Shown piece after piece: positions 27,534-46,264 of a stretch of 64,000 bases of DNA. The stretch spans positions 224,001 through 288,000 of the forward strand of contig CAWAOD010000005.1 of NCBI GenBank assembly GCA_963783575.1, given 5' to 3'. The position numbers were made by a program, and so were the translations under genes. Below the pieces are notes generated by a model that was given only the letters and a program-made list of their open reading frames with translations, searched no databases and was not told the DNA's origin. The stretch's first letter is position 1; every line of letters begins with the position of its first letter. Source of the stretch: an uncultured Spirochaetota bacterium (GTDB taxonomy: Bacteria; Spirochaetota; Brevinematia; Brevinematales; JAOACQ01).

Positions 27534-29375
27534 ATGAACAAATTTAAATCTATATTTTTTATTTCAGCAGTTTTTTCAGTAATTGTATTATTTTCGGGAT
27601 GTCAGGTTGCCGCAAATCAGAACAGCAGCTCCCAGTCGTCCGAAAACTATACCGGAACACTTATAATTACTGAAGTTGGGAGCTCATATACTAATGGCTC
27701 ACGCTGGTTTGAAGTCTACAACAACTCAACCAATAATGTGCAGCTTTCCATTTATTCCCTCCGCTGCTATGTAATGGATGCGTCATCATATTCAGTCCAG
27801 GGAATCCAGACTTTCAGCCTGCCGGACACTTTGATTTATCCGGGCTCATACCTAGTAATACGCGGTAAGATTAATGAGGTTAACTATAACACAGGACAGA
27901 TAGTGTATATTGCGAACGGACAAAATATGGTTCCTTACTGGGATTCAAGCGGTTTTATTGAGCTTGTTAATAACGGAAATACTGGGGACTTTGTCAGCTT
28001 CGGCTCCGACAGTACAGCCCCTTTAACCGGAGGATGGAATGGAGGAGACGCGCCTGCCCTTCCTTATACAGCGGCAGGTTTTGGAAACAGCATCGTGAGG
28101 AACGGCGCCAATTCAGACTCAGACAGCGCGTCGGATTGGAGTTTGCATAGTTTTTCAACACCCGGAGGTCCTAATGACGTAACTTCGGATGCCGATTCGG
28201 ACGGCGACGGCATACCGGATTCCTGCGAACAGCCGGGAAGCACCTTTGCCGGCCTTCCTCTTTATGATTGGGGCGCGAGAGCGGGAACAAAAGACATCTT
28301 CATCTATATCGATTATATGGATACAGCCGATCCGGGCGTCATACCTCAAAAGGCAGCCCTGGACAAAGTTGTTGCGGCTTTCGCGGCTCATAATATTGCC
28401 GTTCACTTTGATATCGGCGATCTTTACGGTTCGGGGGTCAACAATTACAACCTGGATAAAAAAAGCCACCGGGTTCCATTTGCTCAAAGCATTGCTTTTG
28501 GAATATATTCCGGATACGCTAATCTTTATGATTACAAATTAAACTACATGGACCTTGCTAAAAAGCAGATTTTTCATTACCTGCTGTTCGCTTTCTCACA
28601 AAATCAAGATGGGTCGGAAGGATCGTCCGGCGTTGCGGAGCTGCCCGGGAATGATTTTATAGTTACTTTTGGTAATTGGGGATTGACAACATCTCCTGCT
28701 TCCGAATTAAACAGGCTGATAAATTATCAGGCTGCTACAATAATGCACGAATTAGGCCATAATCTTGGATTACATCATGGCGGAAATATCGACCTCAACT
28801 ATAAGCCGAATTTTTATAGTATAATGAACTATGAGTATCAGCTTGAAGGCCTCTCAAAAATCGGTGATGCTAGCGAGGGGGACCGGTATTATTTTTATCA
28901 ATATGTATGGGTAGACAGACAGACTAATACATCTTTATTTAAACAGTATTTTCCAGATCCGGACCCGGAAGCCGACTTATATAATGGCCCGACAGGAGAT
29001 CCCAGTCTATGCAAGATAGATTATTCCGACGGTACTGGGGCCGATATCGATGAGACTAATATATCGGAATCGGCCGGTCTCGTAAGATCAGGAAGTCATT
29101 GGGTGGATTACGACGGGAACGGAGCCTTAACAAGCACTAATTTTGCAAAAATTTTAAATAAGTTCCAATACAGCGGTTCCGGAGGGACTATATTAACAAA
29201 AGGCGTTCTTTCTGATTATGACGATTGGTCAAATCTTGACCTCTTCTTTACACGAAATACGAATGGAGATAACACAGGTGTGAAACCGCGTTTTGCATTA
29301 AACATCCGGCAGGACAAAATATTGGATGACCATCAGAATATTATCGTTGAAACCCTTACCCGGCCGGGAAGATGA
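27534..29375 (+). CDS. Lipoprotein with lamin-tail domain and metzincin zinc-metalloprotease domain
   Basis: Lipobox FSGC; LIITEV..WFEVYN..TPGGPN (LTD); DSDGDGIPD; HELGHNLGLHH and SIMNY Met-turn. Confidence 0.88.
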   Translation: MNKFKSIFFISAVFSVIVLFSGCQVAANQNSSSQSSENYTGTLIITEVGSSYTNGSRWFEVYNNSTNNVQLSIYSLRCYVMDASSYSVQGIQTFSLPDTLIYPGSYLVIRGKINEVNYNTGQIVYIANGQNMVPYWDSSGFIELVNNGNTGDFVSFGSDSTAPLTGGWNGGDAPALPYTAAGFGNSIVRNGANSDSDSASDWSLHSFSTPGGPNDVTSDADSDGDGIPDSCEQPGSTFAGLPLYDWGARAGTKDIFIYIDYMDTADPGVIPQKAALDKVVAAFAAHNIAVHFDIGDLYGSGVNNYNLDKKSHRVPFAQSIAFGIYSGYANLYDYKLNYMDLAKKQIFHYLLFAFSQNQDGSEGSSGVAELPGNDFIVTFGNWGLTTSPASELNRLINYQAATIMHELGHNLGLHHGGNIDLNYKPNFYSIMNYEYQLEGLSKIGDASEGDRYYFYQYVWVDRQTNTSLFKQYFPDPDPEADLYNGPTGDPSLCKIDYSDGTGADIDETNISESAGLVRSGSHWVDYDGNGALTSTNFAKILNKFQYSGSGGTILTKGVLSDYDDWSNLDLFFTRNTNGDNTGVKPRFALNIRQDKILDDHQNIIVETLTRPGR

Positions 29376-30934: not shown

Positions 30935-30996
30935 CTTCCCGCCTTTATGCCTTCCTGTGGAAAATAAAATTCACAGGAAGGTGGTAAGGAGGGAAG
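30935..30996. repeat. CTTCCC...GGGAAG palindromic repeat, copy A
   Basis: CTTCCCGCCTT..CTTCCTGTG-loop-CACAGGAAG..AAGGAGGGAAG; related copies at 34634, 36049 and 37415. Confidence 0.75.
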
Positions 30997-31049
30997 AACC
31001 GCTCAACCGCATAAATATTTTATAAGCAGAGTCAATATTTTGTTTGTTT

Positions 31050-31120
31050 TCAGCCACTAATTACGCTAATTGACACGAATAAATAATAAATTAGTGATAA
31101 TTCGTGCAATTAGTGGCTGA
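31050..31120. repeat. Palindromic element with 13-bp terminal inverted repeats and ~9-nt internal periodicity
   Basis: TCAGCCACTAATT ... AATTAGTGGCTGA; internal CACGAAT/TTCGTG units. Confidence 0.75.
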
Positions 31121-31189
31121 TAATTATGCCTGTTAATTTTGCTTTGATAATTATTTTATCATTTCACAAAAAAAACTACAATTTTACTA

Positions 31190-31219
31190 TTGACAATATA
31201 CCGTCACATGACATAAAAT
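31190..31219 (+). promoter_or_regulatory. Sigma70-type promoter with palindrome in the spacer
   Basis: TTGACA-18nt-TAAAAT upstream of GGAGG RBS and ATG 31263; GTCA-CA-TGAC at 31203-31212. Confidence 0.55.
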
Positions 31220-31262
31220 AAATCATTATATTGTGTAAGGGCATAATGGAGGTCATATATTT

Positions 31263-31934
31263 ATGAAAAAAATATTGTCTTTATTAGTTTTTTTATTCAT
31301 ACTATCATTCATACCGGATTTTGCGGAAGAGTACAAAATCTGGAAGGTTAAACCCGTAAAAATCGACAGGAATAAGGCGGCTGAAAAGATGGCCGGTCAC
31401 TACCGCAGCGAGAATAAGGAAACAAAAAACGGTGTGAAAATCTACCGCTACAACGGCCTGGACGGTTCAAGGGTCAGGATCGGCGATGACGGGTCTATAC
31501 AGGTTGTTCAAACCGCCGGGGTTAAGGAAATAAACCAGGAGCTTTTATACAGTAAGATTTCGGATATGCTGGACAGGCTGGAACTGAAAGTGAAGATCCT
31601 CACAAATCAAATCAAATGGACATACCGGGACTACACAAATCTCGTCAGCCTCACCGGTATAAAGCTTGTGGAGGGGCTGGAGGTTGTGAACGGCGACAGG
31701 GTGGAAATCAACGCGATGAGGACGGGGCCTAAAAACGCGGAATTCGATTTAAAGGTGAGATGGTATGAGACGGGCAAAATGACAATTACAAATATTAACT
31801 TAGATCAAAAATCAAAAAATATTGTCAGGAGTATTACAAATACTGACAATAATAAAATCGATAAAAATAAACAAAGTAATTATGTATATAAAAATGGATA
31901 TTATTATCCGGTGATGAGGTTGATTAAGAAATAA
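31263..31934 (+). CDS. Exported hypothetical protein, first gene of the island operon
   Basis: GGAGG RBS; signal peptide MKKILSLL...DFA. Confidence 0.75.
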   Translation: MKKILSLLVFLFILSFIPDFAEEYKIWKVKPVKIDRNKAAEKMAGHYRSENKETKNGVKIYRYNGLDGSRVRIGDDGSIQVVQTAGVKEINQELLYSKISDMLDRLELKVKILTNQIKWTYRDYTNLVSLTGIKLVEGLEVVNGDRVEINAMRTGPKNAEFDLKVRWYETGKMTITNINLDQKSKNIVRSITNTDNNKIDKNKQSNYVYKNGYYYPVMRLIKK

Positions 31935-31976
31935 TAGTTTTTGTTTATATTAAATTGTATTTTTTGGGAGTTCACT

Positions 31977-33290
31977 ATGTGGAAAAATTTGAAATTATTT
32001 ACTTTGTTTTTTCTATTATTTATATCAATTGAAAGTTGTACAATAAAAAGCATTGATGTACCGAAAGTAATGGAAAATGCCAATTATCCCGGTAATAGCG
32101 ACATGTCTTTCGATGTATGGGCATTATCAGCGGTAGTTAGCCCCGGTGATGATTACAATCCAATAAAATTCGGTTTTTATACCCCATTTCCTTTTAATGG
32201 AATAGATATTACTATATCAGGACCAGGTTTTTATAAATATTCTTTTCAAGAAAGTGATTACGGACAATCCGGAAATTTTTTATGGTATGGGACGGACAAG
32301 GATCCTAGTGAGGATTTAAATGATCCAACTAAGATTGAATATGGAAATAAACAGCCTGAAGGATTTTATAGAGCTGAATTCAATCTTTGGCCTCGTTTTT
32401 CGGACTATAGAGTGATAGAAAGAACATGGTTTTATTTAAGCCGAAATGCAAATCTAACAGTAGGTGCCAGTTCTGATGATGACTTACCGGGCGATAATTT
32501 CTCTGGTCTTGTAGTTGAACCGAATTGCGATCCTGATGTAACGTATGTTTATACTATTAAATTATTCTGGCTAGGCGGAGGTTCCGATGATAGTGTAAAT
32601 ATTACAACTTCTATATATTCAGAGTATGGTTCGGGAGGTCACAATCATACTGTTCCCACCGGTACAATTGCCCCAACAAGTACAATCGGGGGAGGTAATG
32701 GAACAGTTTTTTTTGAGTATACACCTCCCGCATATGGAGGGAGGGAAACTCTTTTTTTTGATGTGTTCTATAAAAAATGTCATAATGTCGCCGGATTAAG
32801 AATAGATATTAAAAACCAGGATGCGGATGATTTTCAAAAATTGCCTATTGACGGCACCGGATACCTGTCCAGTGGTGGAACAGCCTCGCATCTTGGCCCC
32901 ACCGCAGTTTCCGGTAATCCGGATGCAAGGCCGATAGACTTCAATCACTGGGGGGTGGCGGGGTTTGTTGATTTTTTACCCGGTCTAGGGGTATCATTTA
33001 ATAATCAATTTAAACAATTATTGCATTTCAACGATATGTCATTACCTTATGGTGGAAAATTTCATACAGAAATGTATTCCGGTAATGAAGACCATGATAA
33101 GGGAACATCCTGTGATACCTGGTATGATGGAATTGGAAATTTAGATGATGCTGATGATTCTAGATATAAGACAATTAAAATAATAATAAATAATAATAAT
33201 CCATCTGGAGGTATTCATGATGAAAGAAATAAACCGGGCATAAAACCTCACCTCCATCTTATGTGGAACAATGGAGGAGTCAATAATTAA
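31977..33290 (+). CDS. Lipoprotein with FlgD-Ig-like N-region and C-terminal LAS/MepA-like zinc peptidase domain (putative peptidoglycan endopeptidase)
   Basis: GGGAG RBS; lipobox-like IESC; WYGTD..EGFY; NDMSLPYGG, H-x6-D (HDKGTSCD) and terminal HxH (PHLHL). Confidence 0.7.
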   Translation: MWKNLKLFTLFFLLFISIESCTIKSIDVPKVMENANYPGNSDMSFDVWALSAVVSPGDDYNPIKFGFYTPFPFNGIDITISGPGFYKYSFQESDYGQSGNFLWYGTDKDPSEDLNDPTKIEYGNKQPEGFYRAEFNLWPRFSDYRVIERTWFYLSRNANLTVGASSDDDLPGDNFSGLVVEPNCDPDVTYVYTIKLFWLGGGSDDSVNITTSIYSEYGSGGHNHTVPTGTIAPTSTIGGGNGTVFFEYTPPAYGGRETLFFDVFYKKCHNVAGLRIDIKNQDADDFQKLPIDGTGYLSSGGTASHLGPTAVSGNPDARPIDFNHWGVAGFVDFLPGLGVSFNNQFKQLLHFNDMSLPYGGKFHTEMYSGNEDHDKGTSCDTWYDGIGNLDDADDSRYKTIKIIINNNNPSGGIHDERNKPGIKPHLHLMWNNGGVNN

Positions 33291-33322
33291 TAGTTAACAA
33301 TTTATAAATTTTAGGAGGATTT

Positions 33323-34615
33323 ATGGATATACATTTAAGAAAGGTTATGATAATTTTAACTTTAATATTAATAATGATGAATATTGGTTTTGGAACAAGA
33401 AAGGAAGGAAAAAGCAAATATAATGAAATGTATAAGCAATACTGGAGTGAAGATAAATTCAAGGATAAACCCGAATATAAACAGCAATTTGAGATTTTAA
33501 AATCATTAAGAAATCAGTTAAAAGGGTTGGGATATAAAACTGCCGTTGAAGATTATAAAAATAAAATAGAACAGAAAAAGCAGATATATAAAAAAACCGG
33601 TAAATCGGAACAGGAAATAAAAAAAATGATAAATGAAGAACTTATTTTTGGGGAAAGTGAAATATTAAATAAAGAAAATGAAATAATCGATGCGAAAAAA
33701 GCAGAACCGAATAAAAAAATATTATCAATTAATAAAGGAAATATAAATGTTGGTAAATTAAACCCTGATATTATGAATAAAGTTATAAAAAAAGCTTCAG
33801 GATATTTTAGATCAGAACTGACAAAAGACGGTGACTTCCGATTTTATTACATGGATGATGAAGGAAATGAGGCATTTACTGTTTTTGAGCCGGGAAATAA
33901 AATAAATGCAATAGTATATGGAAAGATATTAAAAGAAGTTGATTATTTTACATATAATTATATTATAAATAATTTAAAGACAAGCAGCCAAAGTATAATA
34001 ATATTCGCCATTGATTACGGCAATTTTGGTAACATTAAAGAATTTTATTATAATAAAGAATATGTATTTATAAGTAAAAAAGTAATAACAAACAATGTAT
34101 TTTGCTGGTTACTATATAATAAAATAGCAATTCATCCATTAGATACTTCTGATAAAATATATATTAAGTCATCCGATAAACCCGGAATAATTAACTATTA
34201 TCTGGGAGGGAATGGTCAAGATCCTGATTCTCATGCGCCTTATATGCGACAAGACATTTTAGTCAATTCCGTATCAGGTAAAACCCTCGGCCCCGTCAAA
34301 CTCCCCTGGGAAGATACGAACTACGCAGCGCCGAATAAAACTACCGCTATGATTGATAGGCTTACGGGATATATGGGCGAAAGCTATGATGAAGGCTGGA
34401 TAGAGGATATTAATGTCCGCGACGATCTAACAAACCGGCTTGCTGAAATAAAGAATAATTATAAAGCGGGAAAAACATCAGAAGCTAAAGCAATATTACA
34501 GGGCATTCTGGATTATATCGAGCCGTATAAAGACACGGACAAAGTAATACTGAGTGAGGCTTATGGACTATTGAAGTACAATCTGGAGTATGTGAGAGAT
34601 GAATTGTTGAAATGA
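33323..34615 (+). CDS. Exported protein, paralogue 1, with C-terminal FIMAH-like helical domain
   Basis: AGGAGG RBS; N-terminal hydrophobic signal; conserved tail GPVKLPWE...GWIEDINVRDDL..RL...Y..GK..EAKA.L..IL...EAYGLLKYNLEY. Confidence 0.8.
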   Translation: MDIHLRKVMIILTLILIMMNIGFGTRKEGKSKYNEMYKQYWSEDKFKDKPEYKQQFEILKSLRNQLKGLGYKTAVEDYKNKIEQKKQIYKKTGKSEQEIKKMINEELIFGESEILNKENEIIDAKKAEPNKKILSINKGNINVGKLNPDIMNKVIKKASGYFRSELTKDGDFRFYYMDDEGNEAFTVFEPGNKINAIVYGKILKEVDYFTYNYIINNLKTSSQSIIIFAIDYGNFGNIKEFYYNKEYVFISKKVITNNVFCWLLYNKIAIHPLDTSDKIYIKSSDKPGIINYYLGGNGQDPDSHAPYMRQDILVNSVSGKTLGPVKLPWEDTNYAAPNKTTAMIDRLTGYMGESYDEGWIEDINVRDDLTNRLAEIKNNYKAGKTSEAKAILQGILDYIEPYKDTDKVILSEAYGLLKYNLEYVRDELLK

Positions 34616-34740
34616 AAAAATATAATTTCGTTCCTTCCCGTCTTGTGGAAATTATAAGCAGGAAGATGGGAAGATTTATAATAAAGATTGGCAGGAAGAG
34701 TATGAATTTAAAATTATTATTAATTTTATTTATTTCATTT
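34288..34740 (+). repeat. ~450-bp direct repeat copy 1 (paralogue tail + hairpin + RBS + next signal peptide)
   Basis: Near-identical by eye to 35703-36156; the first ~390 bp also recur at 37077-37474. Confidence 0.85.
34634..34673. repeat. CTTCCC...GGGAAG palindromic repeat, copy B
   Basis: CTTCCCGTCTT-GTGGAAATTATAAGCAGG-AAGATGGGAAG. Confidence 0.8.
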
Positions 34741-36030
34741 GTAGTTGTTTCATACGGTTACGGCAAAAGGAAAGAAATTACTTCTGATTTACTGATCAAT
34801 ACAACGAATTATTTTGTGAACCTGAAAAAATATTCATTGGAGATGGAAATACCGAAAGGTAAAATTAAGATTTATGATCACAAAAAACTGAATATAGATT
34901 ACAATAAAGAATATGATAATTTACTAAAGCGCCATTTGACCTCTACCAATTATAATAAGCGGTTGAATGAAAAAGAAAAGGAGAAAAAAGACGTTGATTT
35001 TTATAAAATGCATTTGACCAGGATAAATCAGTTCGCAAAGGAAGAAGTCCTGGCTGATGGAACAATAAAAGTCACATTGGCAACAAGAAAAACTAACAAT
35101 TGGTATGCTCAGGATTTTGGTAATAACATAGTATTTACTATTGGGTGTACGTTTGAAAAAATTACAAATGGAGTTAATAAATATAATTTTAATGTTGCAA
35201 ATGGCAAAAAAAGTAAATATCCTATATCAGAATTTATTGTGGAAGCTCCTTACGGTCGCCTTGAAAAAGTATATTATCCAGAGCCTGATGAAATATGGTG
35301 GAAAGGTTATAATACAAATGATCTTCAAAATCTTCCTACTCGTAATAATCTGAAAGTATTTCAATGGAATACATCTGATTCAAAATTAATAAAAGAAAAG
35401 TTTGGTAAAATTGATCGTAAATTAAGTCTTAAATTAGAAGAAAAGTTAAAAGAAGCGCAGTATGGGTGGGAAAAATATTGTGAAATAAATCCTATGCGGC
35501 CAGGAAATTCAATAGTTTTATCATTTGAATCAAAAGGAATCCCTGGTATCGTATCATGTTTTGCAATTGGAAGTAGTTCCAATCAGGTTATTCATTTTGG
35601 CGGTATAGGCTATATGAATGAAGGCGATCCGGGTTTTATCCTTCCGAGGTCGAGAAATAGATTGGGAAATGGAGATAGCGCTTTTCTTGAGGCCAATACA
35701 ATCGGCCCTGTCAAACTCCCCTGGGAAGAGACGAACTACACAGCGCCGAATAAAACCGCTGCCATGATCGACCGGCTTACGGAGTATATGGACGAAAGCT
35801 TTACAGAGGGCTGGATTGAAGACATCAATGTCCGCGACGACCTCACAAACCGCCTAGCTGGAATTGAGAACAATTATAAAGCGGGGAAGACATCAGAAGC
35901 TAAAGCAGTATTACAGGGCATTCTGGATTATATCGAGCCGTATAAAGACACGGACAAAGTTATACTGACAGAGGCTTATGGGCTGTTGAAAAACAACCTG
36001 GAGTATGTGAGGGACGAATTGCTGAAATGA
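34702..36030 (+). CDS. Exported protein, paralogue 2 (divergent core), with FIMAH-like tail
   Basis: Signal MNLKLLLILF; same tail as paralogues 1 and 3. The frame also extends upstream to an ATG at 34612 overlapping the previous stop. Confidence 0.8.
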   Translation: MNLKLLLILFISFVVVSYGYGKRKEITSDLLINTTNYFVNLKKYSLEMEIPKGKIKIYDHKKLNIDYNKEYDNLLKRHLTSTNYNKRLNEKEKEKKDVDFYKMHLTRINQFAKEEVLADGTIKVTLATRKTNNWYAQDFGNNIVFTIGCTFEKITNGVNKYNFNVANGKKSKYPISEFIVEAPYGRLEKVYYPEPDEIWWKGYNTNDLQNLPTRNNLKVFQWNTSDSKLIKEKFGKIDRKLSLKLEEKLKEAQYGWEKYCEINPMRPGNSIVLSFESKGIPGIVSCFAIGSSSNQVIHFGGIGYMNEGDPGFILPRSRNRLGNGDSAFLEANTIGPVKLPWEETNYTAPNKTAAMIDRLTEYMDESFTEGWIEDINVRDDLTNRLAGIENNYKAGKTSEAKAVLQGILDYIEPYKDTDKVILTEAYGLLKNNLEYVRDELLK

Positions 36031-36156
36031 AAAAATATAATTTCGTTCCTTCCCGTCTTCCTGTGGAAATTATAAGCAGGAATGGGAAGATTTATAATAA
36101 AGATTGGCAGGAAGAGTATGAATTTAAAATTATTATTAATTTTATTTGTTTCATTT
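35703..36156 (+). repeat. ~450-bp direct repeat copy 2
   Basis: Matches 34288-34740 including the intergenic region and ATGAATTTAAAATTATTATTAATTTTATTT. Confidence 0.85.
36049..36089. repeat. CTTCCC...GGGAAG palindromic repeat, copy C
   Basis: CTTCCCGTCTTCCTG-TGGAAATTATAAG-CAGGAATGGGAAG. Confidence 0.8.
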
Positions 36157-37404
36157 TTATTTGTCGCTCATATTTATAGCGAAAGAAAAGAAGGAAGTTC
36201 CCAATATAATGAGAAATATAAGCAATACTGGAATTACGATAAGTATGCAAATCAACCGGAGTTTAAAAAATATATTCATACTTTGACCAATCTGCAAAAA
36301 GCGATAAAAGCGGAAGGATATAAATCCAGAACGGAAAAACTGAAAATCGAAAAGGACAAATATATTAGCAGCTTAAAACAAAAAGGAAAGTCGGAAAAGG
36401 AAATAAAAAATATGATATCTGAAAATTTTATCCCCCCAAATAGCGAGATAAATAAAAAATTATTCGAGACCATTAATGCTATGAAAAATAAAGATAAGAA
36501 GGAATATTCAGGTTTATTACAGAAAATTAAAATAAATTCTGATAGTATTGACCCGGAAACTTTAGATAAAGTTTGGAAAGAAGCTGCCGGAGAATTTTAT
36601 AGATCGGAATTAACAAAGGATGGGGATTTCCGATTTTATTATATCGACGATGAAGGGAATGAAACATTTACAACGATTGTTCCCGCTAATAAAGTTAATG
36701 CTCTAGTAAAAAGTACAATTTCTAATGATGGTACCAATTATAAATATCAGTATGAAGTGATTAACTTAAAAAATAGCAAACAGGCTATTTTAGGATTTTC
36801 TATAGAATATCAAAAAATCCTACTTGACTATTATTATGATAGAAATAAAATAATTTTTTTAACTACAAATGTATTAAAAACTAATATGATACAATGGGCA
36901 ATGGAAATTATTCATATTATTGTTCAAAACAGTACTATGAATGATTTTTATACAATATCATTAGGTATTCCAGGAATAGAAAAATACTATATTGAAGGTC
37001 TCGGAAAAGAAGGAAATTCTCATTCTCCATATTTAAGGCAGGATACTTTTGTTAATTCCGTATCCGGTAAAACCCTCGGTCCCGTCAAACTCCCCTGGGA
37101 AGAAACGAACTACACTGCGCCGAATAAAACCTCCGCTATGATCGACCGGCTTCTTGGATATATGGACGAAAGCTTCAATGAAGGCTGGATAGAAGATGTA
37201 AATGTTCGCGACGATCTCACAAACCGGCTTTCAGAAATAAAGAACAATTATAAAGCGGGGAAAATATCGGAAGCTAAAGCTGTATTGCAGGGCATTCTGG
37301 ATTACATTGAGCCTTACAAAGACACGGACAAAGTGATACTGAGTGAGGCTTATGGACTATTGAAGTACAATCTGGAGTATGTGAGGGATGAATTGTTGAA
37401 GTAA
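36118..37404 (+). CDS. Exported protein, paralogue 3, with FIMAH-like tail
   Basis: Signal MNLKLLLILF; RKEG.S.YNE.YKQYW, RSELTKDGDFRFYY.DDEGNE and H.PY.RQD..VNSVSGKTLGP are shared with paralogue 1. Confidence 0.8.
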   Translation: MNLKLLLILFVSFLFVAHIYSERKEGSSQYNEKYKQYWNYDKYANQPEFKKYIHTLTNLQKAIKAEGYKSRTEKLKIEKDKYISSLKQKGKSEKEIKNMISENFIPPNSEINKKLFETINAMKNKDKKEYSGLLQKIKINSDSIDPETLDKVWKEAAGEFYRSELTKDGDFRFYYIDDEGNETFTTIVPANKVNALVKSTISNDGTNYKYQYEVINLKNSKQAILGFSIEYQKILLDYYYDRNKIIFLTTNVLKTNMIQWAMEIIHIIVQNSTMNDFYTISLGIPGIEKYYIEGLGKEGNSHSPYLRQDTFVNSVSGKTLGPVKLPWEETNYTAPNKTSAMIDRLLGYMDESFNEGWIEDVNVRDDLTNRLSEIKNNYKAGKISEAKAVLQGILDYIEPYKDTDKVILSEAYGLLKYNLEYVRDELLK

Positions 37405-37414
37405 AAACATTACA

Positions 37415-37474
37415 ACTTCGTACCTTCCCGTCTTCCTTTAAAATTATAAACAGGAAGGATGGAAGGCGGGAAGT
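37415..37474. repeat. CTTCCC...GGGAAG palindromic repeat, copy D
   Basis: CTTCGTAC/CTTCCCGT/CTTCCT ... CAGGAAGG/ATGGAAGG/CGGGAAG, 8-nt periodic arms. Confidence 0.8.
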
Positions 37475-37527: not shown

Positions 37528-37986
37528 ATGGAAAAGATTTTTTGTTTGATTCTTCTGCTTTTCTTTATTTCCGGATGAAGTATGAATCAAAGCACAGTAT
37601 CAAGCTCATCATCATCACCAAATTCATCATCCAGCGTCGGCAGTATTGATCCGGCAATTATTTCCAACTTAACCGGATGCTGGGTTATGACCGGCATCAT
37701 TCATGTAATGAATTTTACAAATAATGTAATTTTAACTGATTATTGCTACACTAATTCCAACGCGGATTTTTACAACTTTTACAGCGACGGAACATATACA
37801 AACACCGGTTATATGGGTTATTGGTTTATCAATCAGGATAAACTGGAGCTGACAAATAATCAGAATGATCAATTGGCTACTTTTTCATTTCCGTCAGTTT
37901 CAAACATGTCATGGTCATATGTGCGTATTTTAAAGAGAATGGTATCGTCACAGATTACAGCCGTTTTGATTACTGGACAAATATAA
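37528..37986 (+). pseudogene. Lipoprotein gene with TGA at the lipobox cysteine codon (37576-37578)
   Basis: AAGGAG RBS; MEKIFCLILLLFFISG*SMNQSTVSSSSSS is in frame with the 37582 ORF; lipocalin-like LTGCWV..FYSDGTY..G.W downstream. Confidence 0.75.
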
Positions 37987-38078
37987 CAACAGCATTACTT
38001 GGACCGTTTATTACGGATAAAATCATATCAAGATGGGAAGAGTTGGATTTTAATAAAACGAATTGAATGATAAGTTCT

Positions 38079-38116
38079 CCCCTTCTCCACTTGTGGAGAA
38101 GGGGTTGGGGATGAGG
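38079..38116. repeat. GC-rich REP-like palindrome
   Basis: CCCCTTCTCCAC-TT-GTGGAGAAGGGG followed by TTGGGGATGAGG. Confidence 0.7.
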
Positions 38117-38155
38117 CTGAAAATCAATAATAAAGATATCAATTGGAGGCTGAAA

Positions 38156-41100
38156 ATGAAAATAGCATCAACTCCTCTGTGTTTTTTATTAATTTTTATT
38201 TCAAATGTATCATTTTCGATAAACTTGCAGGGGAATATAATCCAGGTTGATAAAAAAATAGACCAATCTTATGTTCAGGGATATACTTTTCAAAAAGTTT
38301 ATGATTCTCCAAAGGGTATTGCATTATGGTTGCTCGATGACAATCAAAAATTTTATAGTGTGGATAGCGATCAAAACTTTAAACAACTGATGTGGGGAGG
38401 CGGTGGTAGTATTAATGATTATGCAAGAAAAGTTATAGATTTGGATGTTCCTTGGGGGTTAGCATGTTCTACCAATGCAGTAAATATATATATCAGTGAT
38501 ATTAATTCTCATCATATTATTAAATATACTCGAAATAGTAATGGTATTGATTTTTATTCAAAAATTGGTACTTATGGTACAGGTTGGGGACAATTCAATC
38601 GACCTAGCGGGATTGCAGTAAGACAATATAAAAAAATGGATTTATTATATGTTATAGAAGCTGGAAATAACCGGCTTCAAGCTTTTTTAAATGACAACCT
38701 ATTTAAAATAGATAGTGATAATTTTAATTGTTTTAATTTAAATAACTCGGAACCAATGGGAATTACAATAATAGTAACCGATGAAACAAATTATAAAAAG
38801 GATAAAATCATTGTAAGCGATACATATGGAAATATTTGTTCTTATACTTATAATCATGATGTAATAAATCATTCAGGAAATCATATTTTATATATCGGCC
38901 TTGAAAAATCCCTCAACCTCAGTTCCATCGTTCCCAACGCCTCACTCTACGGAATAGCCATCGATGAATACAATCACATATTTGTTGTTGACAACGCCAA
39001 TACTCAGATCCATATTCTTGACCAAAACCTGAACTATCTTTTCAGCTACAATATGGCCGCAGACGGCATATGGTCTCCATGGTACATCGACATCTGGAAG
39101 CCGACGGGTAGGCTTGCCCTGACATGGGGAGGTTCCGGGACAAAACCGGATACAAACGACGGGGGCGGGATGGTTTACTGGATCGGCGCGAAGGTCTTCG
39201 GACTGAATACCGTGAATCCGCTTTTTTCGCCGCTCAGCCCGGATCAAAATACCTGCAAGGTTCAATACCGGCTTTTTACGCCGTCCAAAGTGACCGTGAC
39301 GGTTGAAGACCAGTCCGGTAATGCAGTCGCCCAGATTGAAAACGAGGCTTATAAAGATATAACCTCCGGCGATTCTTTCGAAACCGTCTGGAACGGCCTT
39401 GACGGTGACGGCAACCCGGTAACACCGGGAAATTACAAAATCAGGATAAAAGCCGACAGCCTTTACGGCGCTTATAGTTCGGATGAGGCTTCGGCGGATG
39501 TTTCCATTTCCATCCCCCTGGCAATCAATATAACAGGTATCGATCCTTCAGTAATCGATTCGCAGAACGGCACTGCCGTTGTTAATTACGGATACAACTA
39601 CGCGCCGGTAAGCATGAGCGCTTATGTGGAAAAGCAGGATGGGAGCGGCTGGACAATAATAAGGACGCTTTTTCAGAACAGCACGGCTTTTACGGGAAGC
39701 GTAAGCTGGAATGGTAAGCTTGACAGCGGAGCGAACGCGCCGGATGACGTTTATAGAATAAGGCTTACGGGTAAGGACAATTCAGGGATAACATCGGAAT
39801 CCATATGCATGGTTGTAGTTAACCGCCAGCCCATTGTACTTTTAGTTGATAACCCGGTTTTAACCGTAATGAACCCGAACAACCCGGCTTATAATAATAA
39901 TTCCATCATTTTTAACATAAGTAAACCGGCTAAGGTTGATATTGTTATAGACGACGCAGCAGGTAATTTAAAGAAAACCCTGCAGACCGGAATATCCTGC
40001 CCGGCAGGTGATAACAATGTCAGTTTTGACGCCGGCGGACTGGAGAACGGATCGTATAAAGTCGTAGTAACAGCCACACATGTTGTGACAGGCAATGTAC
40101 GTCAGGGAGAATCCCCTTTTTCAGTGGATACGATAGCTCCCGGAATTGTGATCAACAACCTTGATAATCCTTATATTTCACCGGATGAGGCTTCAAGTCC
40201 GAACATAAAAGACTCTGTTTCATTCAGCTTTACGGCCGATGAAAATTCAACCGCGGATGTTTCAATCATTAACAATGGCGGATCGATAGTCAAAAATATT
40301 TTTCAACAGCAGGTTATGACCCCTAACAATTCAATGCCGCTTAACTGGGACGGCAGGGACGATTCCGGTAATGTTGTACCTGACGGGGATTACAGGATTT
40401 TTGTTAAAGCTGTGGATTCGGTTGGGAATGTAGGATTAAAATATAATAAAGTGGTCGTAGATGATAACAATTCTGTTGAAAATATAAATTATATCGCGTC
40501 AACATCATTGATTATGAATATGACGGAAAATGATTTTAATTTTTACTGGTCCAGGCAATATAAAAAATATGTCTGGGTTAATACAAACTTGTTCAGCATA
40601 GTTTTGTCTGGGGAAGACGGAAATAACATTAAGACAATCCAGGGGTCGGGATCTTATACAATTAATGGTATATTATCGCCAAAAGAAAATTTTTATGGGG
40701 TTCTTGTTTGTACTAATTTTTACTTTAATGAATTTGAAGAGATAATATGTATTTATAGATTTCTTGATATTGCCGGTGAAAATCTAAGTGAAAATGAATT
40801 AACTAATATCTATCCTTCTGGCAAATATGAACTTGAAAATTCTATTTATATGCCATATTCCTTTAAAATTAATCAAGGCATAATGGAGAATAAAATAATT
40901 TTTGATAGTAGCTGGATAAACTATGGTAACTATAATGATCCATATCATATAAGTATAGGTATAAGAGATATTTTAAATACATCATATGAATATTTTGCAG
41001 ATTATGAAGATAGTCGTGAGCATAGTCTTGATTATCCTATCAATATTGGTTTTTTAACAAGCTCACCGGATGATAATTATATTATTTGGTCATGTTCTTA

Positions 41101-44100
41101 TGATTATTTACATGGTCAAGGTCAATCATTATATATTTATAATTATTCCAATGGACAAACCAAATCAATACCTAATATGTATATATTCATCAAATGGCTG
41201 GATAATACTAAATTTTTGGGTTTGATGAATAACCATCTTTATGAAATTGATGTAGCTTCCTTAAATGCGACTGACATCGGACCAATAAATGCCACCCCGG
41301 TTGAATTGAGTTTCGACGGTAAGTTATTATTATCGACAGACGGACAAAATGTATATTTATATTCTATGGAAAATAAATCGACTTCTTTTCTGTACAATTT
41401 TGATTCAATCTTCGGTTTTCAAAACTCGGTCGAACCGAAAAAATATGAATTGTTTTTCTCACAGAATGGGAATTATTTTTTAGTTTACGGCATTAAAAAT
41501 GGTGTAAGAGGTATCTACCGTGTTGATATAACTAAAACAGCCTCCAAAAACCTTACAGCCAGCCTCGACTATCCCAATTCCGGTATGGATCACATCGAAG
41601 GAGTTATCCAGGTTAGGGGAAGCGCCCTGGATTCGAATTTCGATAAGTATCAGCTTTATTATAAGCTGAGTACGGATGGTTCATGGACAAAAATTTGCGA
41701 AAGCTCTTCGCCTGTAAATCAGGATGTCCTGGGAACGCTTGATACAACAGCTTTTTACGATGGCAATTTTGTTGATATTAAATTATCGGCATATGATAAA
41801 GCGGGAAATGTGAGGGAAAGCGTCACGGAAAACAAGGTCATAAATAATGTTTCTTATCTCCTCTCCGCCGTTTCAGTGAACGGAGGTTATTTGACTCCAA
41901 ATAACGCTATTATAAATTACAAACTGAACGATACCGCTGACAGCGTTCAGATTACAATAAAAGACGCCGGCGGAAATACACAGATTCTGAATAACCAGCC
42001 TACAACAAGCGGACTTAAAACAATCAATATCGGAGGCAGTCTGAACTTGCTGTCCGATGGAAGGGTAACATATTCCGTCGTGGCGGTAAAAGATGGTAAA
42101 GGCATAACTTTAGGGGGCGATTTTATCCTTGATAAAACCCCACCGGCCATCACTATCGATAATCCAACCGGTACAGTCACTTCAAACAGGCAGGTTGATG
42201 TTACCGGTACGGTTAATGACGCGAACCTTTCGTATTACGATATCTTAGTAAACAATTCAAAAGTCAATACTGTAAGCGGTATCTCAGGCGGGTCTGTGAG
42301 CGGGAAGCTCGCTTCAATTGACTTACCCGATGAAATAACTTACACGGTAACCGTAAAAGCTTACGATAAAGCCGGAAATTCTTTTGATAAATCCATTAAC
42401 ATCATTGCCGACAGGACCCCGCCCATCTGTTTAATTAATTCTCCGGTTCAGGGTGAGGGGATCAGTAAAACTCTGAAGGCAAATGGAAGTATAACCGATC
42501 CGAACCCGGACAAATTTGATCTTTATCTAAATGATAATAAAATATATACCGGGAACCGGCCATGAAACGGAGAACTCAGTTTCAACACATCCTCCTTACA
42601 GGGCAATTATGTTTTGAAAATAAACGCTTCGGATACCGCAGGAAATACTGCTGTATTGACCAGGAATATTGTGGTTGACAATAATCCGCCCTCAACAGCG
42701 GTGACGTCAAGAGGAAAGTCTTTCAATGATGTTGTTTATAAAAACGGTTCGCAGAACCTGATAAACGCCGATACGCCGTTTGATTTTACATCGGTCAGCG
42801 GAGACGATTATTCTACAGTTGTAAATAACATGCCTTTTGTCTCAATCAACGGCGGGAGCTATACGCCTCTGGGAAGCGTTCATTTCAACGAAACCGTAAA
42901 GAATACCCCGCAGAATGTATCATATTATGCCTCTGACAATTTCGGGAATTCCGAAGCTGTTAAGTCTTTTACAGTTATAGTTGACAGTACTCCGCCGGCT
43001 GTAACCAATCAAATTTCCCAGCCGTTTTATCAATTAAACGGGGTAGTTTATATACCTCAGCAAAATAATATAACCCTATCAGCATCGGACGACCTGGCCG
43101 GTGTAAAAAACATTTATTATACAGCCCCCGGTAATGAAGGTTTTTCCTTATATGTACCGAATCAAAGCGGCCTGGCTTTAAATAAACCGGGAGAAAATAA
43201 AATATCTTATTATGCCGAGGACAATGTCGGCAATAAATCGGAACCTCAGACCTTGAGCCTTTTCCTGGATTCCATCCCGCCTTATACATCTTTAAATAAG
43301 GACGGGCAGGTATTTACTTCAGCAGATAAAATATATTATAAAGGAATCCTGCAATGCGTATTGATTCCGGTCGATTTCGGCTGCGGTGTAAAATCTTCTT
43401 TATATCGGCTGGATGGCGGAAACTATATCAATTCTGTGAATATCCCGGCTTTTCCGGCGAATATTAACGGTACTATCCGTCAGCTTGAATATTACAGTGT
43501 TGATTTTGTGAATAATGAAGAAAACCATAATAAAGTTACAATCGTTAATGATGAAACTCCGCCTGTTTCAACTTTGACAATCGATGGGGTTTCTTATACA
43601 AATAACTATGTTTATTGCCTTCCTTCAAATAAATTTAAAATCGAAGCCTCCGATTTCCTTTCAGGTGTAAAGGATATTTATTATAAAGTAGATACCGGCG
43701 ATTTTACCAATTATTTCGATGAATTAAGCATTAACCCTGGCGCATACGGTTCCTCCCACACAATTTATTATTATTCAATGGATGACCTCTCCAATTTAGA
43801 AAACGTTAATAGTATCGAAAAAATAATAATTGACGGAAATCCTCCTGAAACCTTAATTTCAGTTAAGTCCGGCAGGGTGATAAACTTCAATGGAAGTAAT
43901 TATTGCACAACAGGAACCATTTTTACTTTGAAAGCAACAGATGATTTGTGCGGAGTCGGGTCAACAATTTTTATTAAAAACGGTATTTCCAACTCCGGCA
44001 CTGATATAACCATTGACCGGGCAGGGAATTATAATCTGGATTATTATTCTATCGATCATCTTGGTAATATTGAGCAGGCAAAAAATTTGCAGGTTGTTTC

Positions 44101-46264
44101 CCCTATACCGGATACGACTCCGCCCGTTGTGGAATTAACATACAGCGGGATTACATATTCAACCAATAATCTACTTTACGCAAATACAAACCTGGTGATT
44201 TCAGTTACTTCTACCGATATAGCGCCGGCTTGGGAATACCCGACTGGCGTTTCAAATATTTTATATTCCATTAATGGAACATGGAAGGTAATACCCGGGG
44301 ATAAAACTGAGATTTTATTGCAGCCGGGGAGTATTCACATTTTATATTATTCCGGCGATAATGCCAATAATATCAGCGTTACAAATGAGTTTACCGTGAT
44401 TATTGATGAAAAGTCACCAATAACTATTTGCGATTATTCCAGTACAAATTGGACAAATAAATCCATATTATTAAATTTCCAGGCTTTGGATATGCCGGCA
44501 GGATTTTCAAGTGGCGTTAGTCAAACCTCATTAAGGATAGGTAATATTATCCTGTATTCTAATACTTTACTTATTCAGGACGATGGTATAAATAATATTT
44601 ATTTCAATACAGTGGATAATGTGAGCAATCGGGAAGCCGATAAATTGGTTACAGTAAAATCGGATTTCACTCCTCCGGCAATAAATATTACCGGTGCCAA
44701 TAATCTTACAAAATATGGAAAAAATGGTGTTAAACCAATAATTTACTTAAGCGATAGGCTTCCTGGAAGCGGGTTAGGAAGCATGGAACTGGAAATTATT
44801 AAGAATAATACATCATTCTTATACATATCGACAAATTTTGAGGGTATAACCTCATCTGAAATTGATCTGGATAAAATAACCGGTGAAGGCGATTACGTAA
44901 TGAATGTCAGGTTATATGATACAGCGCTTAATTTTTCAGGAGCTTCCATTATTTTTAAAATCGATACAACTCCTCCGGATATTCCCACAAATGTAAGGCA
45001 TCTATTTGACGGCAATGCAGAATACCTTGAATGGGATAAAGTCACAAACTTGGATTTAATGCAGTATGATATTTACCGTGATAGTAATTTTATCAATTAT
45101 TCTACCAATTCCGGATTTATAGATACTTATCATGAAGGGGCTATTCATAATTATAATATTTCTTCAATGGATAATGTCTGGAATGAAAGTGGAAAATCGT
45201 CAAATGAAATAATCAATACATCCACTGCTTTTTCTTTAGTCCATCCGTCAACAAACCAATTCTATAGAAATCACCTATGGATCAGGGCGGATTATTATGG
45301 AGATAATAAGAATAGTAAATTAAAGTTCTGGGATTTCCATTATGAGGATAACGATGAAGATAATATTTGCAACAATTTTGAACAATATATAATACCGTAT
45401 TGGGAGTTTCAAAATAGCAGGAATGATACTTTACAGGATGTTAAAGTAGAAATCGCTTTAAGCAACGCTCTTGTACCGACAAATTTCATTGTAGTTTTAC
45501 ATAAAGATTCTATTCAAAAGCATATTTTTATAAACCTTGATTTAAGGCAAATGGAAGAGGGCAATTATATATTGAAAGTAAGCGGCGTAAAAGACAATAT
45601 CCCAAAACTTGAAGATGCTATGTGGTTTGGGATTGATTCTACTTATCCGGTTACTTTCTTAACTGTAGACTCGAATATTTTAACAAATATGGAATCCAGA
45701 CAAAAAATTTATATCCCTTCTGGATCGACAATTGGTTTAATAGCGATAGACCCCATAGTTAATAATTCATCTTCCGGTGTAAAGCAAACCTATTTTTCAT
45801 TATCGGGAAATAAAATTAATACCGGGTGGTTAAATTATACTAATCAAAAATTATGTTTAAATAATGGGGAATATCTTTTATCATATTACAGCTGCGATAA
45901 TACTCACTTTTTATTTGAAGATTTTCCACAGGACTGGGTATTCCCTAGAAGTAATATTGAACCGTTAAAAACGATTGAAATTTATGTGGGGAATTATTTG
46001 CTTACAAATTGTTTGAATATTTGTGATGCCAAAATACCGGAATTTATTGTGAAAGGCATCTATGATTACGGGAAGTATAAAGGAAAAGCGGAATTCAATT
46101 TTTCAGTAACCAATGTTGTATCGTATGATGCGGAATTAGACGGTAAGAATGTGGCTTCTCCCCAAAAAATAACAATAAAAGGAGATCACAGGTTAAGAAT
46201 AAAAGCAATGGATAAATCGGGTAATATATTCATAAGAGATATTGTTTTTGAAATTTCGGATTGA
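38156..46264 (+). CDS. Giant exported multidomain surface protein (NHL/beta-propeller, FlgD-Ig, Ig-like and OmpL47-type repeats), interrupted by one in-frame TGA at 42563-42565
   Basis: GGAGG RBS and signal peptide at 38156; GQFNRPSGIAV..NNRLQ (NHL); WNGLDGDG..PGNY, WNGKLDSG..DDVY, WDGRDDSG..PDGDY (FlgD-Ig); many D.TPP and YY..DNVGN.E repeats. Track ORFs 38063-42565 and 42614-46264 are in the same frame with no other stop between. Confidence 0.8.

Follow-up and report, generated by a model that had tools for sequence, protein, structure and literature searches.

In a 64,000-nucleotide stretch of contig CAWAOD010000005.1 from an uncultured Spirochaetota bacterium (referred to here as the window), we characterized a candidate toxin-immunity locus, which consists of a gene for a lipoprotein enzyme and three downstream paralogous genes, F1, F2, and F3, whose products (the partners) end in a nearly constant helical tail. 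These four genes and a preceding gene, orfA, are all encoded on the plus strand after a sigma-70-like site at 31190 (Table 1). An original prediction had read the group as a cell wall hydrolase with cognate and orphan inhibitors or specificity adaptors, and the gene positions, the strand, and the NDMSLPYGG, H-x6-D, and HxH motifs that it reported were all confirmed. The starts of F2 and F3 were chosen by the common block of ribosome-binding site (RBS) and signal peptide, the longest open reading frames (ORFs) beginning further upstream; the length of the database protein P0002 is 428 aa.

Table 1. Features of the locus, with positions counted from the first nucleotide of the window
Feature	Position	Strand	Description
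Lipoprotein enzyme	31977-33290	+	437 aa; lipobox Cys21
Predicted zinc site of the enzyme	33093-33257	+	H373, D380, H425-x-H427; alignment based
F1	33323-34615	+	430 aa; signal peptide, lineage-specific helical extension, beta-sandwich core, FIMAH tail
F2	34702-36030	+	442 aa; core most divergent of the three paralogues
F3	36118-37404	+	428 aa; F1 type, core 45% identical to that of F1
Constant block	34289-34776	+	FIMAH tail, stop, hairpin 34634-34673, RBS and signal peptide of the next gene
orfA	31263-31934	+	223 aa; exported, family unknown, no relatives found
Candidate sigma-70-like promoter	31190-31219	+	11/12 consensus positions; consensus match only
Strong hairpin, dispersed REP-like family	30935-30996		z -7.3; kin of the hairpins after F1 to F3
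Second intergenic hairpin, separate dispersed family	31047-31123		AT-rich
Hairpin copy after F2	36049-36089	+	z -1.6, weak
Hairpin copy after F3, end of array	37415-37474	+	z -4.3

According to a predicted model (mean predicted local distance difference test score [pLDDT] of 68, greater within the LAS domain), the lipoprotein is composed of an immunoglobulin (Ig)-like domain at about residues 42 to 157, which matched another Ig fold, an intimin/Big_1-like domain at residues 160 to 280, which matched intimin-type Ig domains, and a MepA-like tip of the LAS peptidase type at residues 286 to 433. The C-terminal LAS/Hedgehog-DD-peptidase fold that had been foreseen was recovered in two ways. MepA was the top match of the model (Z, 9.5; root mean square deviation [rmsd], 3.4; 136 residues aligned), with ShhN (Sonic hedgehog) at a Z of 8.6, and a profile of 37 enzyme relatives matched MepA at an E value of 6e-5. 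A Foldseek search with the whole model gave a list filled by Ig matches, the LAS fold not being among them. Both family models scored the enzyme below threshold, namely, Pfam M74 (PF03411) with 19.6 bits against a cut-off of 25 and the NCBIfam MepA model PRK09429 with 20.1 bits against a cut-off of 272.

The window enzyme contains NDMSLPYGG, H373-x6-D380, and H425-x-H427. Among 40 aligned sequences, the corresponding columns held H373 in 40, D380 in 39, H425 in 39, and H427 in 22, position 427 being Glu in 13. H373, D380, H425, and H427 are predicted to be zinc ligands from MepA biochemistry, together with the alignment to MepA. Residue 370, three residues ahead of the first zinc ligand, is Asn in the window enzyme; it is His in the other 39 of the 40 aligned sequences and in MepA, and the enzyme thus lacks the His of MepA/M74 at this position. 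The enzyme therefore appears to be MepA-like by fold and motifs, yet it lies outside the M74 family cut-offs. Its homologues amounted to 53 proteins in a HMMER search, a word-based search having given only the enzyme itself, and two full-length relatives (P0010 and P0011) were 35 to 38% identical, both with a lipobox. In the Ig domain preceding the LAS tip, we also observed a GGHxH motif (32640-32648, residues 222-224), in which both His residues were invariant in 40/40 sequences; it is possible that this motif forms a second metal site or a latency element.

The three paralogues combine a variable core with a near-invariant helical tail, as had been predicted. Pairwise, 96 to 98 of the 109 aa in the tails were identical (89%), whereas the cores shared 72/159 (F1 and F3), 39/150 (F1 and F2), and 35/99 (F2 and F3) residues. 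The F1 model (pLDDT, 88) shows a helical extension, a beta-sandwich core, and a four-helix tail. The fold nearest to the core was YcnI at a middling Z score of 8.9. The best match of the tail was the C-terminal bundle of the GH92 enzyme 7nsn (Z, 13.5; rmsd, 2.1; 94 residues aligned), and the next match had a Z of 11.6; since helical bundles score high by chance, we hold with moderate confidence that the tail is a FIMAH-type four-helix bundle, the identity originally proposed for it. The FIMAH model (PF22888) gave the window tails 21.2 to 22.7 bits against a cut-off of 24.8, and tails of relatives scored above it (39.9 to 44.9 bits).

The partner family comprises at least 152 proteins. Hydrophobic N termini occurred in 119 of 128 tail-bearing partners versus 5 of 126 internal controls, and on this ground the partners look exported. 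F1 adjoins the enzyme gene, and because of this gene order it is probably the cognate immunity protein; F2 and F3 are each probably orphan immunity proteins. The constant block at 34289-34776 was 86 to 88% identical to the copies that follow it and is a candidate recombination anchor.

The pairing of LAS enzyme and partner was kept across phyla, as the original prediction required. Starting from partners, 187 stretches were confirmed, and the best 80 of these gave 76 genome loci. A core match was present in 75 loci, of which 47 had a LAS gene directly upstream and 21 had something else there, the remaining 7 being truncated. Starting from enzymes, a partner was found behind 36 of 45 LAS genes, a count biased upward by the enzyme model (A7), which was built from partner-adjacent genes, and exclusive of two weak host-phylum LAS matches (G039 and G094). 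By set, the pairing was seen in 25/25 cases in the class of genome G305, 5/8 in the phylum of G303 (the three misses are weak matches), 6/8 in the host phylum (the two misses are truncated), and 0/4 in genome G018. In G018, a relative in the order of the host, the four LAS tips sit among many other tips in a separate cassette array of more than 50 kb (L102-L104), and behind every tip lies an exported partner that is not of the FIMAH type. The LAS domain is also found at the C terminus of an RHS-like protein (L242). Conversely, partners without an enzyme occur in G012 (L204/L205), L054, and L081/L082.

The loci are found in the host phylum, Bacteroidota/Ignavibacteria, Nitrospirota, and deltaproteobacteria, and their occurrence is patchy: 9/301 genomes of the host phylum and 16/151 and 11/251 genomes of the other two sets searched. 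The system was present in 0/11 other genomes of the host family, and no further enzyme or tail copies were found in the host genome, which is 90% complete. Host-phylum partner cores are divergent yet homologous to the rest (hhalign, 98.9%).

We then compared the upstream tips and partner heads of 133 distinct tail-bearing genes; those outside the tip classes described here are preceded by another tail-bearing gene, by an unrelated gene, or by the end of a contig. The partner head tracked the class of the upstream tip. LAS tips (57 cases) go with core-only heads, in which the core starts at residues 18 to 71 in 51/52, F1 being the exception. A lysozyme-like tip (18 cases), so labeled for its GLxQ motif and sub-cut-off SLT matches in 3/18, always goes with a partner bearing an extra domain of about 200 aa ahead of the core. 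C39 tips (7 cases; Pfam C39_2 match in 6/7, above the cut-off in 5) have a distinct partner head, and HExxH tips (12 cases) have four further partner-head clusters, two members of which gave sub-cut-off HEAT matches. The system is thus broader than originally predicted, LAS being one among at least four predicted tip classes. As a third gene, seen in Bacteroidota/Ignavibacteria, a short gene with a type IX secretion system (T9SS) sorting tail follows 44 of the 133 partners, and Pfam agreed in 3/3 of those checked.

The relatives display the traits of polymorphic toxins, namely, a common N terminus with varied tips, a tip-dependent downstream partner, orphan cassettes, and poly-immunity runs; the polymorphic-toxin-like layout that had been suspected is borne out in them by orphan partners as well as orphan cassettes. 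The common N terminus was seen in Bacteroidota/Ignavibacteria, where 28 enzymes of all tip classes begin with a signal peptide and QVxIxExxxI. The complete genome of G305 contains 14 tails in arrays whose signal-less tips open with a common repeated junction, and in L043, L075, L032, and L070, Ig-LAS fragments lacking a signal peptide were observed behind partners. In the G305 arrays (L143-L148), the tips are of the HExxH and lysozyme-like classes; their partners are HEAT-like, of other kinds, or devoid of the tail, and a T9SS-tail gene is present as well. Besides, two core-plus-tail units are joined in a single protein, resembling a poly-immunity fusion, in P0064 and in L194 of G341.

Which part of the partner follows the enzyme was apparent from 40 natural pairs. 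Distances between LAS domains correlated with those between cores (rho, 0.53) far more than with those between tails (0.18) or between the Ig domains of the enzymes themselves (0.25), and the nearest LAS neighbor was within the three nearest cores in 30/40 pairs, tails in 7/40, and Ig domains in 10/40. The LAS-core correlation was 0.32 to 0.51 after near-duplicates were collapsed, and within broad taxa it was 0.68 and 0.83, versus -0.13 and 0.04 for LAS and tail. It seems that tip and core are exchanged as one, with the stalk on one side and the tail on the other staying constant.

The history of the window array is consistent with such exchange. Synonymous divergence (dS) was 0.48 to 0.85 among the tails, with nonsynonymous divergence (dN) of about 0.05, and 1.4 to 1.8 among the cores. 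The G+C content at third codon positions (GC3) was 0.21 to 0.24 ahead of the tails, values that fall within the bottom 4% for 1885 long ORFs, versus 0.44 to 0.58 in the tails, the genome median being 0.38. A core tree was built from 31 rows, namely, 8 chosen ones and one row in four of the remainder in A6; in this tree, F2 joined P0006 of another organism (97/93) and F1 joined P0007 (96/86), the placement of F2 being weakened by the long branches of F2 and P0006, and P0007 being partial. The window tails were about 60% alike to the tails of these two neighbors and 89% among themselves. A simple recent tandem duplication of F1 to F3 was rejected, the three cores not forming one group in the tree. 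These patterns fit three cores of old lineages on a homogenized tail, with one cognate and two orphan immunity genes, and likewise fit foreign cores having been recruited to a tail of local origin, as orphan immunity arrays do.

Based on these observations, we consider it on balance probable that the locus belongs to a polymorphic toxin-immunity system directed against other bacteria, which acts in the periplasm and on the cell envelope. The lipoprotein would be a MepA-like zinc endopeptidase on an Ig stalk, exported and probably either displayed on the surface or shed in vesicles, and would cut the peptidoglycan cross-links of neighboring cells. F1 would be a Sec-exported inhibitor gripping the LAS domain by its variable beta-sandwich core, as the co-variation suggests, and F2 and F3 may be orphan inhibitors of the LAS alleles of other strains. 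The FIMAH tail would be a constant tag on all partners without a role in specificity; the protein part probably serves localization or stability, and its DNA may act as the downstream recombination anchor. The swapped unit would then be the enzyme tip plus the partner head, between Ig stalk and tail. As for the route, the host genome contains one secretin in addition to the lipobox of the enzyme; four FlaA matches in it suggest a spirochete. No match to VipB was found in it at 90% completeness, which agrees with the original claim that genes for a type VI secretion system (T6SS) are missing from the window, and no match to SprA was found in a search without a positive control.

Several points weigh against this interpretation. 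In the window itself, orphan tips are lacking and the only enzyme has N370, a residue that may make it a weaker catalyst, and an anchored lipoprotein would need a route into the periplasm of another cell. Linkage in one contiguous DNA block would alone give LAS-core co-variation, which speaks for a unit of exchange and not for contact. All 18 partners that go with the lysozyme-like tip, which is not a LAS domain, retain the core, and for this reason the core cannot be solely a LAS inhibitor; as to the lysozyme label of that tip, the PDB profile search was empty and Pfam gave no match above cut-off. The nearest F1/F3-like pair (G012, L204/L205) has no adjacent LAS gene, nor was a LAS match found in G012, and such an enzyme-free pair would fit either orphan immunity or an independent function. 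To these must be added the upward bias of the enzyme-first count and the way in which the common enzyme start QVxIxExxxI was recognized, the motif having been picked by eye without background control.

Strict pairing and co-variation would be expected for any obligate partner, including a dedicated chaperone, activator, or secretion/targeting subunit for each tip, in which case the enzymes would serve scavenging or predation and no immunity would be involved. A core common to the partners of two unrelated tips and the T9SS-tail gene behind many partners accord with this, as does the report that deletion of the FIMAH bundle in the solved enzyme halved yeast-wall binding and lowered the melting temperature from 60 to 53 C (PMC10167667, as far as the available part of that article goes). 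We nevertheless regard it as unlikely: divergent orphan copies pile up in the window, L043, and G305, which is unexpected for chaperones, partners occur without any enzyme (G012, L054, and L081), and cores from other lineages better fit immunity arrays.

Less probable still is a housekeeping endopeptidase that remodels the wall together with regulators, in the manner of MepA or TagX. In the accessible portions of the respective articles, MepA is a self-acting endopeptidase (PMC6403190), and the LAS enzyme TagX opens the wall of its own cell and is required for T6SS assembly (PMC5061870); a lipoprotein anchor would suit work on the cell's own wall, too. Such a role is hard to reconcile with the patchy occurrence in the host phylum and host family, with tips interchangeable with C39 and HExxH domains, or with the existence of truncated orphan cassettes, and conserved apparatus genes were not seen around the loci displayed.

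The original prediction had all three paralogues dock on the peptidase by the constant tail, the variable part setting substrate or target specificity. The tail is in nearly every partner and appears to be under strong purifying selection (dN, about 0.05; dS, 0.5 to 0.8). However, LAS co-varies with the core and not with the tail, which argues against tail docking, and the same tail is carried by partners of LAS, C39, HExxH, and lysozyme-like tips, so that a single bundle would have to bind four folds; we consider this docking very improbable. Finally, the window enzyme is hardly likely to be a degenerate relic beside a maintained immunity array, as N370, at a position where 39/40 aligned sequences have His, and the in-frame stops of two downstream genes might suggest, since its reading frame is uninterrupted and neither the lipobox nor any predicted zinc ligand has been lost.

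We compared the proposed toxin-immunity system with known ones. Polymorphic toxin systems with poly-immunity loci (Zhang et al. 2012, PMC3482391), as presented in the available part of that article, share a constant N terminus, variable C-terminal enzyme tips, a downstream partner, orphan cassettes, and tandem or fused partners with it. In our case, however, partners of unrelated folds end in one constant C-terminal domain, and the identifiable tips and exported partners point outside the cytoplasm; the word MepA has 0 occurrences in 300,000 of the 357,715 characters of that article, supplements aside. TANFOR toxins of Bacteroidetes (PMC7073777, likewise in part) are also Sec-exported enzymes with variable tips, lacking a T9SS tail of their own and lying beside genes for T9SS substrates. 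Their tips are chiefly nucleases in that source, unlike those found here; moreover, a short gene encoding Ig and a T9SS tail follows the partner here, and the system also occurs in other phyla and in a host without a SprA match. No TANFOR domain match was obtained for 11 proteins against NCBIfam (E, 0.1), in which the presence of the TANFOR model is unconfirmed.

A VanY-like peptidase, of the LAS fold, occurs among the exchangeable tips of another system, the cystatin-like lipoprotein toxins. This system has lipoprotein toxins and a linked immunity gene as well, although its N-terminal domain is cystatin-like and not Ig-like, and one related immunity family serves all its tips, whereas here the head changes with the tip and the tail alone is shared (PMC12419801, available part). 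E. coli MepA itself (peptidase M74, PDB 1tzp) has the LAS fold and the NDMS..GG..H-x6-D..HxH motifs; the window enzyme differs in scoring below the Pfam and NCBIfam cut-offs, in its lipoprotein Ig stalk, in its fixed partner gene, and in its patchy distribution. The FIMAH domain (PF22888) of GH92 (7nsn) shares the fold of the tail. There, the bundle is described as accessory to a glycosidase, and no function has been assigned to it (PMC10167667, in the part available); here, it would end candidate immunity proteins. The literature searched, which did not cover supplements and most subscription papers, contained no account of FIMAH-tailed partners or MepA-like tips, and we provisionally regard the FIMAH-tailed toxin-partner system as undescribed.

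With rather more reserve than for the window, it is conceivable, if somewhat doubtful, that these loci represent an undescribed class of polymorphic toxins that attack the cell envelope and are spread over several phyla. In this class, the immunity proteins would be unrelated in fold and yet all carry the constant FIMAH tail, recombination would swap tip and head between toxin stalk and immunity tail, and in Bacteroidota/Ignavibacteria the toxins would leave the cell piggyback on a small T9SS-tail adaptor. If true, this would be the first biological context for the FIMAH domain, and the tail could be used to search little-studied phyla for toxin-immunity pairs and for new wall-lytic enzymes together with their inhibitors. 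Inhibitors would also become available for wall peptidases of the MepA type and for several tips, wall-lytic or proteolytic, that are still unclassified; to our knowledge, no natural protein inhibitors of MepA-type LAS peptidases were previously known. Furthermore, the cassette design would be a mirror image, the immunity gene being the one that ends in the constant part, and adaptor-mediated export by the T9SS would be a testable case.

As for the remainder of the locus, the original prediction had one operon with a promoter at 31190. This site has the best consensus in the scan, but the scan found 43 promoter-like sites against a chance expectation of 35.6, so that the promoter and the operon are no more than plausible. 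OrfA, claimed as a member, was rejected as part of the system, neither relatives nor any sign of membership having been found; there was no usable Atlas match and no tblastn match across 240 loci. Its GC3 is 0.60 over codons 1 to 170 and 0.25 beyond them, a drop that suggests a recombination join. The hairpins after the paralogues were rejected as system-specific signals, weaker copies being present elsewhere in the genome, and the hairpin at 30935-30996 is probably not specific to the toxin-partner system either. The family of the 31047-31123 hairpin gave 37 genome blastn lines, self-hits counted, with several copies on contigs C5 and C13, some adjoining the REP-like (repetitive extragenic palindrome-like) hairpin.

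Downstream of the array, a small lipoprotein-like gene (37528-37986, +) has an in-frame TGA at the expected position of the lipobox Cys. At 38063-46264 (+), ORFs of 1500 and 1216 aa lie in the same frame, separated by a single TGA (42563-42565); they are probably a single surface protein of about 2730 aa with FlgD-Ig, Big, and NHL repeats, broken or misassembled. Stop codon recoding in these two broken genes was rejected, as there is no tRNA with a TCA anticodon and interruptions of this kind are seen with each of the three stop codons. Upstream, an ORF unrelated to the array (27534-29375, +) encodes a lipoprotein with a lamin-tail domain and a weak match to reprolysin-like HExxH metallopeptidases.

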